DNA from: Podarcis muralis
Taxonomy: Eukaryota
Length of the DNA: 64,000 bases
Assembly (NCBI RefSeq): GCF_964188315.1
Contig: NC_135656.1
Span: 74,276,001-74,340,000 of the forward strand
Direction: 5' to 3'
Part shown: positions 40,513 to 47,500 of the stretch, one piece after another
Layout of the letters: each line of letters begins with the position of its first letter
How positions within the stretch are numbered: the first letter of the stretch is position 1
Made by a program: the position numbers and the translations under genes
The notes under the pieces: generated by a model
Told to the model about the DNA's origin: nothing
Databases searched by the model: none
What the model saw: only the letters and a program-made list of their open reading frames with translations

Positions 40513-41886
40513 CTATGCTTTTCAGATGTGATGCAAGCCAGAGGCGGAGGCTGACAGGATGTGGGATTGCAATTCCTGTTCCTCTGCAGTTCCCCTGAAA
40601 TTGATCTTGCATATCTCTTTCCTGTGAAGCCCTCTGCTTGTCAGGTCCACTTCTCAGGACATATCTGCTCCTGATTTGACACTAGTTGGCAGCTTCTGGC
40701 AACGTAGAACCATATGACAGGCAGAAATTCAATAGTTGAATCTTTGATCACATCATTGTCATCATCTTCATCATCATTCTATTTGTATGCCACACAACAG
40801 TGAGTCTCTATAGTAGAAAAAAGCAGTGGCTGTTGAATTTCTGCCTCTTGTGGAGACATGTCTGAAAAAATATGTGGCAAATTCTCTTTGTGCAGGAAAA
40901 AGTGTTTGAGAAAATGAGGTTTGCAAAGTGTGGGTTTTGAACACCTTCCTCTGAATAGACAGCACCATCATATATATATAACAGCATACAACAGTATGTA
41001 TATATATAACAGTAGTCAAATTTTGAAGTTGCTGTGTAGACATTTTGAAGATGGGGAAAATCAGCCTGAACTGCATGTGGGTGACATGCGCCTTATACGA
41101 GGGGATCTGGTTTGCAGAATTAAGAAGTGGGCCCTGCTGTTAGGCAGACAGAGATGGCTGCCTCAGGTGGTTGATTTTAAATATGAAAGGGCAGGAAACT
41201 CTTAGGCTATATCTGCATTTAAAGCACATGACTTTCCCCAGAGAATGATGGGGATTGTAGTTTGTTAAGGGTGCTGGGAATTATAGCTCCTTGAGAAGCA
41301 ACTACAGTTTCTGGGATTGTTTGGGGTAAGTCATATGCTTTAAATGTATGGGGTATCTCCAGGAACCTGTGTGTCTCACCTACAATAAGCATGGAAACAG
41401 ACCTGGATAACAGCCAGTTCTTGTGTTTTTTAGTGATAGGGAATCAGAGTCATTCTTGTGTTTCTTGTTTTCAGCAGGCCTCAGGGCAACCTGATACCTG
41501 CCTAGCACCCAGTAGCACCCAGCATGGTGGGGCAGCACTGTGGAGCTGGTCTCCCAACACCAGTGTCACTACAGCTTACCTGGATGGTGCAGAGAGAGGG
41601 ACAGGGCATCAGTGAAATTGGATCCATTTTTTTAAACTGTGGCCAGATACAGACTTCATGGCTTCACTCTCAGGCAAAAAAACAAACAAAAACAAAACCT
41701 CTCTCTCACCACTCCTTCCCATTGCTCTGATGAAGAGTGCGGGAGAACTCTTAAAACCTGAGCACTATTTCGTGATATTTTAATTGGCTTAATAAATCGT
41801 GTCCTCCCTAAAAGAGGGCACGTGTTGCGGTGAGACCTGGAGACTGACCTCCTGTGTTGTGGGTGGGTTGGATTGGTCAGCTACAA

Positions 41887-42022
41887 CAGTGTCCCCCAAC
41901 CTTGGGCCTCCAGCTGTTTTTGGACTACAATTCCCATCATCCTTGACCACTGGTCTTGCTAGCGAGGGATGATGGGAGTTGTAGTCCAAAAACAGCTGGA
42001 GGCCCAAGGTTGGGGAACACTG
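41887..42022. mobile_element. 136-bp palindromic hAT MITE with perfect 8-bp TSD
   Basis: TIR CAGTGTCCCCCAACCTTGG / CCAAGGTTGGGGAACACTG. TSD AGCTACAA at 41879-41886 and 42023-42030. Confidence 0.92.
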
Positions 42023-42619
42023 AGCTACAACACGGTAGGTCCCTTGATGTTGGGTTCAATCTGGACAATGGGGCGCAGTCTAAATGGATCAAGGGACCTA
42101 TGCATGTGACCCAGAGCTTCCTCTTTTGGCTCGTGCATTCGGAACAAGCTAACAGCATGTCCTCTGTGCAGCTGAGAGACTTACCTTCAAAGGATCGCCT
42201 TGGTGATTTCTTTCCGTTATTCTTTCCCTTTTGTTAATCCTTTCGTTAATTTTCCCCTTTTCAGTTGTCTTCTTCCCCCCCTTCTCCTTCCCTTCTCTAG
42301 CGGGGCTTTGCTCCACTGGGGCTCAGCCCCTGAGCACTCCTGGTTGAGGAGCTTGCCGCCCCACTCTTACAGCGGCTGGTGTCCCTGTAATTTGGCTGCG
42401 GCTGCAGCTTTGGGGTTTTTTCAGCTAACGTGACTTGGGCAATTTGCGTTTGTCGCTCTCTGGGTGCTTTCGTTCAGCGCTTTGACTAATTTTGCTGCAT
42501 CGAGAGTTCCCTCTCCGTTGCAATATTGATTTCTGTGTGCCCTTTTGAGGAAAGGTTGGTTGGGTATTTGTTTGAGGGCGGAAAACCCTCTTCTTTTCAT
42601 TCCAGCCCAGGTCCACAAA

Positions 42620-44080
42620 AGTAGCAAATCAAAAATCAGTGAGAGAGATGCCTGATATAGCCAGGAAAAAGATCAGGAAGGAACTAGTGTTGGGAAGGAT
42701 GGCTGGACCATTTGAGTGCCCTCCTTATCCAGATTTACACCTTTCCCCGTTGGGTGTGGTGCCCAAGAAGGCCCCTGGGGAATTTCATTTAATTCACAAT
42801 TTAGCTTACCCACGAACTGAATCAGAGTTTGTCCCCATTGCTTTCCATGCAATGGAGCAGAAGGAATCAAGGAGTCCGGCACAGACTTCTGTGCCGGGGA
42901 CAAGTCTGGTTTGCAAGAAGCCCTTGTCGTCTGCTGATGTATCTGTTCTAGTTCCTTCGCAAGTTCCTCCCCTGGGCTCAGCTCGCCATCCCTGCAGGGA
43001 CCCCCACTGGCCAAGGATCCCTGGCACAGTCTCTGGATTGACCCCTGCACAGCGCCAAGAAGTGGCTGGGAACCGTAGCGCATGTCATCCTTGCCTTTGC
43101 CCCTCTGAGGTTCCAGCGTGCTTTCGGATATCTGAATGTCATGGAACGGGATTTGGTCCTCAAAGAGACATTGGAAGCCCCCGTCCACCCATCGGGCAAA
43201 GGGAACAAAAGGAAAAAGGACGATGTTACTCTAGAGGAGGAACTCTCCTGGGCTGAGCTTCTCCAGAAAGAACTACCAGCTGAAGATGATCCCCAGGACC
43301 TGACTTATGAGTCTACCATCTTTGAGACGGAAAGCGAAGAATACAAATCTCAGAATGACACCAATGTCAATTTGGAGGTGGAGGGGAAAGATAGATTCTT
43401 GATGCTGAAGGAAGACCCAGCTCAGCAGGAGGATCCAAGGAAGGAAAATGGTGCTGGGGAGGAGGCCCTGGACCCCCGCTGCTCCAGGGACGGGAGTGAG
43501 CAGCCAGACAAGGAGGTGCCTGACAGGACAACCCGGGTGCGAATCCCACCAGCCCTTCTCTGGAGAGCAGAATGCTCCTCCCATCCCGCGACCCCAGTGC
43601 TGAGATGACCTCCAGTAACAACTCCCAGGGTGAATGTGACCAATGGGTGAATGTGAGCAGCAAATAATGGCAACTGTCTCCTTTCCTGGCTGAGATTGGC
43701 ACTGCAGCATAGCAAGGTGACTATTTCTGACTGTCTGCCCCCTTCCAGCAACCGGATGCCCTCTTTTTGATATGGAAACGTCTTCTCTCTTTTTTGAATT
43801 TGCAATAAAGCCTTAATTTTTCACACGAAAATTAATAATTTTTATCTTACCCACAGGGTACATCAGTAAATTATGCTATCCCTCCTGAGTTTTGTTCTGT
43901 CAAGTATGCCACCTTTGACCAAGCGTTCAAGTTGATTAGGAGCTATGGGAAGGGTGCACTTTTGGCAAAGTGTGATGTGGAATCTGCGTTCCGCTTACTT
44001 CCTGTCCATCCACTTGATTTTAAGTTGCTTGTTGGATGGAGCATATTATGTGGATAAGGCCATGCCAATGGGCTGCTCTA
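42620..44080 (+). mobile_element. DIRS-order (Ngaro-like) retrotransposon reverse-transcriptase fragment, split by a 1032-bp insertion
   Basis: The left part reads KIRKELVLGRMAGPF...LHLSPLGVVPKKAPGEFHLIHNLAYP. Removing 42814-43854 restores the frame into QGTSVNYAIPPEFCSVKYATFDQA...GALLAKCDVESAFRLLPVHPLDF..., then DGAYYVDKAMPMGCS after a small deletion. Confidence 0.85.
42814..43845 (+). pseudogene. Processed retrocopy of an acidic protein gene (tentatively 'oogenesis-related'/org-like) with two premature stops
   Basis: One frame runs 42814-43608 (265 codons) broken only by TAG 42949-51 and TGA 43039-41. AATAAA at 43804-09, A/T-only tail at 43828-45, and a 9-bp TSD CTTACCCAC at 42805-13 / 43846-54. 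The identity is from recalled motif similarity and is unverified. Confidence 0.72.
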
Positions 44081-44088
44081 CACCTCCG

Positions 44089-44542
44089 TGTCAGTGGGGT
44101 TAAGGGATTGGTTATAGGTGTGAGTGGTTGGTGGCGAGCACGGTGCTCGTGTGGTGGATAGGCATTGGTTCAGGTGATAGGGATGAGAGAGCAGTCTCGC
44201 CATCCCTATGTGAAGGGTATTCCGTTAAGGAATCCAGGGACTCAACTGGTTTGGTCAACCCCCGAGAGGGGGTTGTGCCCGTGCCTGAGTCCATCTGGGT
44301 GGTGAACATAGTTTGTTCCCAGCTTTTCGCCTACCCAGGTGTTTACCTTTGGCAGACCTACGCTGGTGCCCTGGGTCAGTGCTGCCTGCAAGGGTGCAGG
44401 GAGCTAGTCGGACCAGAGCCTATGCAACCACTCACCTTCTGTAATCAATACATTTGTGCCCTAAATTCTGCCAAAAACCAAAACTAAAATTGAGTCAAGT
44501 GTGAATTTATTTAGGGGGGAGATCTCTGGGTCTGAACCCGCA
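44089..44542 (+). mobile_element. LTR-like segment (TG...CA) truncating the Ngaro RT
   Basis: Starts tgtcagtgggg where RT homology stops. Has a polyA-signal-like aatcaatac and ends ctgaacccgca. No clean TSD. Confidence 0.4.
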
Positions 44543-47500
44543 AATGTATTCCGCTAAGAATTTTTTCCCCCATTTGTACAAACAGCATGGCATTCTTTCT
44601 ATCTGGGAGTAATTTGCTGGCCTCCTTACCTGGCCTGGCCTGACCCTGCCTAGCCTATAAGAGATAATAGGATAACAGCCCAAGGTGGTTTGACTGCAAG
44701 GCAATTCCCTGGTCCTGGAAAGGAGCCACAGAGAACACAATCTAAAGTGAAAAATCATTCCAGCCAGTGACACTTATTTTCTTTCCCACAAGGCTTCCTC
44801 CTCTAATCCCAGTATAATTAGTCACTGTGGCATTCAATGGGGCAAATGTAACTTCTCATTCAGAAATCCCCATTTCTTTCAGCCAGAGAACCCACCCCTC
44901 TCTTTCACTGGGGTTATTATGGGGCTCCCTACCCGCCTTACCAACTCGTTCCCTGTGCCCTTCACCTCTTGACTGCCTGCCTGCCTGCCTGCCATGGATG
45001 TTTTGAAAAGGTTTGTCTCCTTCCTTCCTCCACGTTATTCTCACCGACTCCCTGGTACCTTTTAAGCTTACCATACGCTGCTTTGTTGTCTCCCCTCCCA
45101 GCGTCACTCTTTGATTTCGCAGCCCCAATATGACATCCTAATCTTAGCTCCCTTCAGGATGTTGGAGGAGATGATTGTCAAGATAGCTCCGGGCAGCGAG
45201 CAGATCGTGAGGAAGGCAGGCTGTGCTACGTGAGGGTGACGGGCAGCCCTTCATTCCTCCCCTTGCCCTCCCTTTCAGGTCTATCTCTTAATCTCTATTG
45301 CTGTAGCAAATGGGTAAGCAGGCCATCCTGAAAAGCAGCATGGCTTGCGGTGCCCATGTGGGAAACGTGCATGTCGCAGGAAGCCTTATCAGGCGGTGGC
45401 ATTTACTCTTCCGCTCCGCTTCCTCCTGCTGTCTCTTGTTTGTTCTTTGTATTGTTGTTACTCGGATAATTATTCACTACATCCCCGAAGGGATGACATT
45501 TTGATGCAGATAACGCTGCCTCTGCCGAGCAATATTGCACGTGCTGCTGCCGTTAGGCCATAGCGAGGATTCCCAAGGGAGGGATCAGGACCTGCCAGTG
45601 GGCCGCACATCCCTTAGGTGGGTGGGTCGCCAGGATGTCTGCTGTGACCGCTGGGAACAATGCAGCTGAGGGAGTTCCCAGAGAAAGATACAGGCGTCAT
45701 CAGGCCCATGCAGAGCGGTTGGGGCAGCCAGGTACACTTGCCCTGGGCCTTGGAGGCCTAAGCTGGCCGAGAGGTCCTGCCACATTATGTAACCAGACCG
45801 GCTGCTTTTTTGTTTGAGTTTATAACTTTATTCCAATGGGACTCCCGCCCTGCCCTGGGCCTCAGGCAAGCTTTGCAAAGGCCTGGGCATAATGATAAGT
45901 AACATGGGCTCTAGTAAATTGGGTTGTGTGGGAGAGATGTGGGAACTCTTATCAGCTTGAGGGCCACGTTGCCTCCTCATTTGACCTTCCGGGGCCACAT
46001 GTCAGTGGTGGGTGAGGCAAATAAACACAGGTTTTGCCTTTGTACTGTTGGCTGTTCCTCCACACCTGCTCTCTGTCCTCCATCCAGGCAAGCAAGAAGC
46101 ATTATCAGAGTTTAAGGACAGATGAAAACACTCAAGGAAGGTGCAAAGTAGAGCTGGTGAGGGGTGTAGTTCAGGAGGGTGTATGGATTTGGGAAAATCC
46201 TGAGGACCACATAGAGAAGGATGGAGGGGCCATGAGGTGCCCCATCCCTGGATGAGATGTATGCATGGTCAAATGGGCCTGAGTGCAAGCAACACGACCA
46301 ATTGCTAGGGCCGGTACAATGTTTTAGGGGTTGCCGCTGAAACGGTGCATGCTTCGAGATGTGTGCCTCCCAGTCCCTCACTATTCTGGGATGTGCCTCT
46401 TGCCGCACATCCCGCCTCTGAGGGCAATAAGATGGCATGGGCCAACTCTGGTAGGAGTCGCATTCCTCTGCCAGTTTCACAGCATGTCATTGTGATAACC
46501 GCTCTATGGGCACCAGTTCTTCTGCTGGAGAGTTGACAAGCAGCGGTGGTGGTGGGGAATAGTACACACAGTGAGTGTTGATAAATTGTTGAGCTGTTCC
46601 AGTGCTACTGCAATGGCCTCATAAATTATGATAACTAGGGAAGAGGTACGAAGTGGAGCTGTTGCGTAGGATTCATGGAATGCCAAACATTTGATTGCTT
46701 TTCTACTTACGTTTTCTATATTAAAATTACAGTTTATCTGGGGCTGGCACCCTCTCTGTCAAGATCTTCAACTTATGTATTTTAAGGCTTTTTGTAAACA
46801 CTCATGGGAACGTGGTCTCCCTTCTGTGGCAACTTGTAACCACCAGGTGAAGGCACTGTATTTCTTCTGGTGTGGTAAGTTTGCTATGATATTGCTTTGC
46901 ATTTGGGAGTTGTTATTTTGGATGTTGCAGTTTAATTTCTCTTGGTGCTATGAGATAATGTATTTCCATTGTATTCCTGTTTACTTCAGTTGGCACAACA
47001 AATACTATTTATTACTTATATCTCTCCTTTCCCCTATTGAATGCAATATGGTCACTATTCCAAGGTGGTCTCATATCCAGGCACTGACTAAGACTAGACC
47101 TGTTTATCTTCTGCAAGATTTCTGTATGCATGGGCAGAGCGTGCAAACAAACAATTCTTCCCTCTCCTTTGCAGCATGGAACCAACAAGGGGGGAACCAG
47201 AAAAATAAGCAGAGGAGTCTGTCCAGTGACAGCTCAGGCATAGATTCCTGCCTGCCTTCTTCACTCACCCTATGCATTTGGTTGTCACAGCTTTCACAGC
47301 CTGCTTCCTTTTCATGCTATAAACAAAATGTACAGAGGTTAACAGAATGCGGCATATTTGCTGCACATGCTTACTGCTCAGTGAAGCAGAATCATAGCCA
47401 GCCACAATACAGAACAATGCAATACACAAGTGGTATGGCTTGAATGTTAGTACTCTGTTAAGATCAAAGCAGGAGAGACACACAAACATACACATTGCCT

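Follow-up and report, generated by a model that had tools for sequence, protein, structure and literature searches.

The 64,000-nt stretch of Podarcis muralis DNA analysed here (the window, G000:C2:74276001-74340000) carries, at 42814..43826 on the plus strand, an intronless, processed copy of an mRNA of the oogenesis-related (org) gene family, which is seated in the reverse transcriptase (RT) region of a deleted Ngaro retrotransposon. With high confidence, we consider it a real and full-length processed pseudogene that derives from the lizard org orthologue and is dead. It is delimited by its match to the parent gene, and its first base, a G, is not templated by the parent.

A sequence-only reading of the window had described a 1032-bp insert between exact 9-bp duplications with RT on both flanks. 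When these positions were checked, CTTACCCAC was found at 42805-42813 and again at 43846-43854, with a spacing of 1032 bp between the copies and RT-like sequence on either side, and both coordinates stand. The duplication can be extended to 14 bp with one mismatch (5' copy 42800..42813 and 3' copy 43841..43854, plus strand, last 9 bp exact), and its 3' copy has the same state as the nearest sister elements. At two fixed places the random expectation is approximately 4e-6 for nine exact bases and 2e-7 for 14 bases with one mismatch. None of the 19 sister loci fetched carries the insert and the site is uninterrupted in 18 of them (L028 is deleted at the site; L032 and L036 overlap each other). 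Thus, the comparison with sister Ngaro copies that the earlier reading had proposed points to a one-off insertion with target duplication.

Three other origins of the insert were rejected. Amplified Ngaro cargo was ruled out as no sister carries the insert, and a high-copy transposable element fragment, the second concern of the earlier reading, was ruled out as a single other genomic locus matches it. Segmental duplication was ruled out because the introns are missing from the copy. A DUSP7-like gene occupies 23900-33400 of the window (plus strand); its last coding exon (32918-33379) matches DUSP7 with an E-value of 3e-40, and the insertion site follows about 9 kb further on.

The sole other genomic match of the insert is a locus on contig C18, where it falls into seven pieces. 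This parent (G000:C18:3116864-3129567, minus strand, annotated as LOC114588641) has seven exons and six introns, all GT-AG, and every intron is gone from the copy, so that the multi-exon parent expected of a processed retrocopy was found. Aligned to the parent, the copy has its exon junctions after 42884, 42945, 43165, 43311, 43428 and 43662 (plus strand). The spliced parent model encodes 271 aa, with a start ATG that matches window position 42852 and a stop just beyond the last junction; in the copy, the remnant of this 271-codon ORF extends over 42852..43666 on the plus strand (end approximate, from the parent alignment). The copy supports this 271-aa model (P0053, ATG 42852) over the newer model P0001, for the first 19 residues of which no close match was found within 140 kb. 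In a phylogenetic tree the copy falls within Podarcis (100/100).

The 5' end of the copy is 31 nt behind a TATA-like box of the parent, TATTTAAA (G000:C18:3129567-3129610), and the match to the parent stops at 43826, 17 nt past the polyadenylation signal AATAAA (43804..43809, plus strand), which the earlier reading had placed correctly and which is also present in the last exon of the parent. With such a start and such an end, the copy covers the whole mRNA. It is followed by a G plus an A/T-only stretch (14 nt in all, 43827..43840, plus strand) that is missing from the parent and allows two readings by eye: it may be a decayed poly(A), or partly a longer, decayed target duplication of 16-23 bp. 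The A/T tail, described before as not a clean poly(A), is therefore present as an A/T-rich stretch after 43826, part of which is also readable as duplication. An (AAT)n run about 50 nt beyond the inferred cleavage site of the parent (G000:C18:~3116810, L009) resembles this tail, and the likeness is probably a coincidence.

A LINE reverse transcriptase, probably of the L1 type, is likely to have copied the org-family mRNA in the germ line or early embryo. The process would have been target-primed reverse transcription of a capped and polyadenylated mRNA, and the extra untemplated G at the 5' end would be the copied cap, as an extra 5' G has been read in work on L1. The copy would then have inserted into the deleted Ngaro soon after that Ngaro copy arrived, followed by neutral decay. 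As a retrocopy is heritable, the parent mRNA would have been present in the germ line or early embryo. Elements with both endonuclease and RT are present in the genome; no LINE tail matching that of the copy was found beside L046. Because the tail is not a clean poly(A) and the target has no clear TT/AAAA site, the enzyme is proposed from the anatomy of the insertion. In its lost introns, kept mRNA ends, target duplication, position away from the parent and neutral decay, the copy resembles LINE-made processed pseudogenes. It differs from them in its ambiguous tail and its seat in a Ngaro RT, neither of which makes it a new kind. For lizard, 404 retrocopies are given in PMC3136929, and most vertebrate retrocopies are described in PMC13320880 as having no intact ORFs.

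For the host element, at least 40 genomic relatives of the left flank were obtained (40 of 66 candidates scored). Five relatives (L052, L053, L054, L056 and L057) have split direct repeats in the order A1...B1 A2 B2. ORFs of L054 match RVT_1 (1e-13), Phage_integrase (2.5e-5) and Lipase_GDSL_2 (6e-4), the last two below the curated cut-offs. The RT fragment of the window is 67-73 % identical to L054, and its own short pieces matched no Pfam family. The Ngaro layout (10.1101/2021.08.05.455354) combines split direct repeats with an RT, a tyrosine recombinase and an SGNH/GDSL ORF, and since the relatives show all of these, the proposed Ngaro-type host is supported. The hydrolase ORF, described in that source for amphibian Ngaro elements, is also found in the lizard elements analysed here. 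L053, L054, L056 and L057 are young and apparently complete, with repeats 98-100 % identical and the SGNH/GDSL ORF after the recombinase.

Of the roughly 7.5 kb of a complete element, the copy in the window retains only about 1.6 kb, with one A and one B part and about 450 nt of RT. The 5' repeat (A) plus leader lies at 41794..42603 (71-95 % identical to sisters). The RT fragment is at 42600..42813 on the 5' side of the insert (84-89 % to the four nearest sisters) and at 43855..44080 on the 3' side, where it has an 8-nt gap relative to sisters and stops at a large deletion. The 3' repeat (B) segment at 44082..44546 is 85 % identical to L047, and in L052, L053 and L054 each of the two B repeats matches it. 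All four features are on the plus strand, and L052 contains two matches each to window positions 41794-42146 and 44086-44545. Besides the 8 nt within RT, the element has lost about 2.6 kb upstream of RT and about 2.5 kb downstream of it. A palindromic MITE of 136 bp, which we take to be hAT-like, is inside the 5' repeat (41887..42022, no strand assigned), bounded by the 8-bp duplication AGCTACAA and seen as a gap in the sister alignments.

The RT fragment of the window differs by 10.3 % from each of its nearest sisters, L043 and L044, and by 14.6 % from L045; L047, L048 and L049, whose distances are inflated by partial coverage, were left out. The Ngaro thus has about 5 % divergence per lineage, close to the copy's own branch, and it is likely that the mRNA copy landed soon after the element. 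We infer this timing from the similar divergence of the two, approximately 5-6 % per lineage. The insertion would have truncated the Ngaro RT. It had been proposed that the insert dates the death of the element, and this was not sustained: the window copy has other lesions (deletions, the RT gap and the MITE) whose order is not recoverable, so the insert gives no such date. L043, L045, L046, L047 and L048 carry or adjoin other transposon insertions, several of them very young, which are presumably CR1-like, L1-like and LTR-like.

The copy has decayed. Both stops of the earlier reading are nonsense changes relative to the parent, at 42949 (parent CAG) and at 43039 (parent CGA), the latter in agreement with the proposed CGA>TGA decay. 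As a count of lesions, "only two stops" was too low, as indels of +1 near 42902, -7 near 43525, -3 near 43560 and +9 near 43629 are also present; the total is two stops, two frameshifts (42902 and 43525) and two in-frame indels. The proposed frame of 265 codons from an ATG at 42847 had to be revised as well. It is because the number 265 counts from the start of the insert (254 codons including the stop are obtained from 42847) and the parent ORF begins at the ATG matching 42852. With the frameshifts, the 265-codon frame is a chimera of three frames: about 17 codons at the beginning of the proposed peptide and about 27 at its end do not belong to the parent protein, and the "stop" at 43608 arises from a frameshift. 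The longest stretch open in the parent frame, 43042..43524 (plus strand), contains the conserved org core. The ORF ending at 43256 is, as had been suspected, an RT/retrocopy chimera.

Copy and parent differ at 81 of 1002 sites (8.1 %; K2P 0.086), and 22 of the 51 transitions are at parent CpG sites. The dN/dS comparison suggested earlier was carried out and gave dS 0.099, dN 0.074 and a ratio of 0.76, for which some 16 synonymous and 43 non-synonymous differences were available and in which two lineages are combined. The ratio was equal in the core and the ends of the copy. When 25 outgroup proteins were used to polarize the 43 amino acid differences, 24 were copy-derived, 12 parent-derived and 7 unresolved, and residues nearly invariant across the family are altered in the copy (R71W, E178G and G181R). 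At the nucleotide level, a contig from run X18 served as outgroup over 456 sites, where, among the differences listed, 26 were copy-only (5.7 %), 15 parent-only and 9 X18-only. We infer that the copy has been decaying neutrally since insertion and it is likely to be without function.

Transcripts were also considered. In run X18 (organism B, presumed to be RNA), a spliced contig of 1006 nt is of the parent type and intact. A run search named no RNA run with a match, which does not bear on expression. Run X15 (organism A, also presumed RNA) contains two copy-type contigs at a depth of 3-4 which have the TGA of the copy and are without the stop at 42949; these may represent DNA carry-over or weak transcription. 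As that stop is missing from them, lesions of the copy differ between individuals or lineages. The X15 contigs extend over window positions 42923-43436 and differ from the window by about 2.7 %. In the sampled parts of the raw RNA runs X21 (~6 %) and X23 (~12 %), the insert was covered by no read.

It could be argued that the copy is or was a functional retrogene or a regulatory RNA, for instance one that supplies small RNAs against the parent, with transcription from the Ngaro 5' repeat. A full-length copy does lie downstream of a retrotransposon leader, its dN/dS is slightly below 1, the X15 contigs are of the copy type, and org of the tongue sole is described as regulated by antisense RNA (PMC9369028). 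However, the two stops and two frameshifts, the changes at near-invariant residues, the likeness of core and ends in dN/dS and the lack of insert reads in the sampled parts of X21 and X23 make this extremely improbable. We therefore retain the dead pseudogene.

The homology to org, which the sequence-only reading had proposed, was substantiated by direct and profile matches and by a common intron. The parent shares 41 % identity with salmon org over 165 aa, and the ORF of the copy shares 44 % with coelacanth org over 123 aa. A squamate profile built from five sequences matched 88 representatives at E <= 0.001, of which 20 were looked up by name. Clusters named oogenesis-related included those of Latimeria (1.8e-42), Erpetoichthys (9.4e-38), Rhinoraja (6.3e-34), Hemibagrus (6.9e-30), Callorhinchus (1.1e-28), Amia (9.5e-28), Carcharodon (1.1e-22), Nothobranchius (7.4e-19), Gadus (1.6e-18) and Hemiscyllium (2.4e-16). 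The org-named proteins thus come from sharks, rays, bichir, bowfin, teleosts and coelacanth. Word-based searches (50 + 66 proteins) extend the range to lungfish, tuatara, turtles, birds and a large number of frogs, among them Xenopus with XB5727280, and the family spans amphibians and squamates too. The earlier notion of an amniote gene was accordingly too narrow, as the family spans jawed vertebrates. In the case of the squamate orthologue that the copy was said to reveal, the parent is real, but it was already annotated under its LOC number and UniRef names the P. lilfordi member "Oogenesis-related gene".

The conserved core consists of a basic KGxKRK motif, W..L..EL and an acidic YE..ET(D/E)SEEY.S.NDT. 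Among 50 motif-bearing matches, 26 have a Val directly after YE/YQ, which corresponds to a GT donor read through at intron 4 of the lizard gene; 21 are of the spliced type and 3 are other. As read from these protein sequences, an intron after the YE motif is common to the lizard parent and fish org. When the org part of a fish family protein was used as the query, only the copy (9.7e-18) and exon 4 of the parent were found. A tree built from the copy and 38 chosen proteins (39 rows) recovered sauropsids, birds, turtles, squamates, frogs, ray-finned fish and cartilaginous fish; sauropsids formed one clade (100/98), frogs grouped weakly with ray-finned fish (93/78) and deep nodes were weak.

These results bear on whether the parent is an org-like paralogue, or a look-alike of acidic composition, rather than being orthologous to fish org. 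In favour of such a reading are the low complexity of the protein and its Atlas scores (0.89 for the copy and 0.94 for the parent), both of which come with low recognition values. Yet the similarity goes beyond acidic tracts to non-acidic helices and the KGxKRK motif, the intron position is common, the fish query finds copy and parent exon alone, and the tree broadly tracks species relations. We judge such a look-alike or paralogue quite improbable. Orthology with fish org (zorg) agrees with the conserved core, the 41-44 % identity, the intron after YE and the single copy in lizard. In the tongue sole, org consists of 6 exons, encodes 221 aa and gives a maternal transcript of the oocyte cytoplasm (PMC9369028), whereas its lizard counterpart consists of 7 exons and encodes 271 aa, and the acidic tail is longer.

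The neighbours of the lizard parent are FKBP8, WDR18 and a 7tm_3 receptor, and the parent is adjoined by an exon that we take to be KXD1-like; in human, FKBP8 is presumably followed by ELL. One fish gene model, P0075, fuses org to a short-chain dehydrogenase (adh_short, E-value 4e-12), which is presumably HSD11B1L-like. The fusion hints at a neighbour of org in that fish. The dehydrogenase part of this single fish model had no match on C18 (six scored places).

PMC9369028 states that org exists solely in fish, and the tetrapod family members contradict this claim. A literature search of titles and abstract openings, in which few subscription journals were covered, returned no title on tetrapod org, and for Xenopus XB5727280 no paper was found; in PMC11607696 the term "oogenesis-related" is used generically. 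The retrocopy itself is ordinary. Its by-product is that the fish-only claim is corrected and that unnamed LOC genes of frogs (XB5727280 in Xenopus), reptiles and birds are tied to an oocyte gene, part of this wider range being already implied by database labels.

No mammal was named among the org-family matches, of which 20 of the 88 profile representatives were named and the word-based searches included few fish. No crocodilian or chicken was named either. As these are also unnamed and many of the 88 representatives are without a look-up, loss in mammals is a lead and not a result; org was possibly lost in mammals. Ten gene families without eutherian members, including velo1, are reported in PMC3296468, and org may be among the eight of the ten that are unnamed in its main text. 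Like velo1 and the other eutherian-absent families, which are oocyte-associated and kept in egg-laying vertebrates, org is a candidate for a gene missing in eutherians. If the loss holds, org joins a short list of egg genes shed toward mammals and is testable in Xenopus, where oocyte work is easy. On balance we lean towards a joint reading: org would be an ancient maternal oocyte gene of jawed vertebrates, retained from sharks up to lizards, turtles and birds, lost in mammals alongside yolky eggs, and the retrocopy would be fossil proof of germ-line transcription in a lizard and mark the true start behind the TATA box.

Residues 1-121 of the parent protein have a net charge of +17 and amphipathic helices, and the rest has a net charge of -37 (31 % D+E). 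A transmembrane segment is absent, as hydropathy over 19 residues reaches 1.14 at most, and this pattern recurs in ten other family members. The AlphaFold2 model of the parent is weak (mean pLDDT 59, pTM 0.26) and has helices at 19-45 and 72-90. Foldseek found no match of the model in PDB, and so gave no fold-based function, and a PDB sequence search found none. No Pfam family was found for four window peptides, and 32 org-family members gave single weak matches only. From these predicted features, it is a tentative possibility that the parent encodes a maternal protein of the oocyte, docked on membranes or RNP granules, whose long acidic and disordered tail would bind basic partners.

LTR elements capture mRNAs by template switching, and the Ngaro RT might itself have captured the org mRNA in this way, with an in-frame RT-host fusion as the product. 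Such a fusion can be read, as the Ngaro RT frame continues via the 5' UTR into the parent ATG frame (ORF 42576-43256), but an in-frame joint is expected by chance one time in three on each occasion. The 14-bp duplication around a full-length mRNA copy fits nicking and priming at a genomic target instead, and the absence of the insert from all 19 sisters is also against capture. A second spliced mRNA copy, very young, lies in frame within the RT of sister L045, which would favour capture. However, this insert is 99-100 % identical to its parent and the host element is about 15 % diverged from its sisters, so it landed in an old Ngaro copy, which argues for tolerance of insertions over capture. 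Several sisters hold CR1-like, L1-like or LTR insertions, and the loci may simply tolerate them. In a post hoc and unsystematic screen, a retrocopy was present in 1 of 15 fetched 10-kb loci against about 0.03 expected (404 per 1770 Mb, PMC3136929), again in favour of capture. Taken together, capture by the Ngaro RT is very improbable, and target-primed insertion by a LINE enzyme remains the preferred origin.

The L045 copy comprises the six 3'-terminal exons of a PIN_11 gene in spliced form (L045:3570-4284, minus strand, and past a CR1-like element; G000:C4:105744244-105749083). The parent, at G000:C3:88187775-88193458, is presumably ZNF451-like. This copy is in frame with the RT (P0197, 344 aa), 5'-truncated and without poly(A), and has a 7-bp fold-back at its 5' joint. 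It is split by the young CR1-like element, which is about 4 kb long with a 1008-aa open frame and a 3-bp duplication. At another relative, L050, a receptor-like ORF of 328 aa in a single frame, which we take to be bitter-taste-like, occurs twice, with the Ngaro fragment between its two copies.
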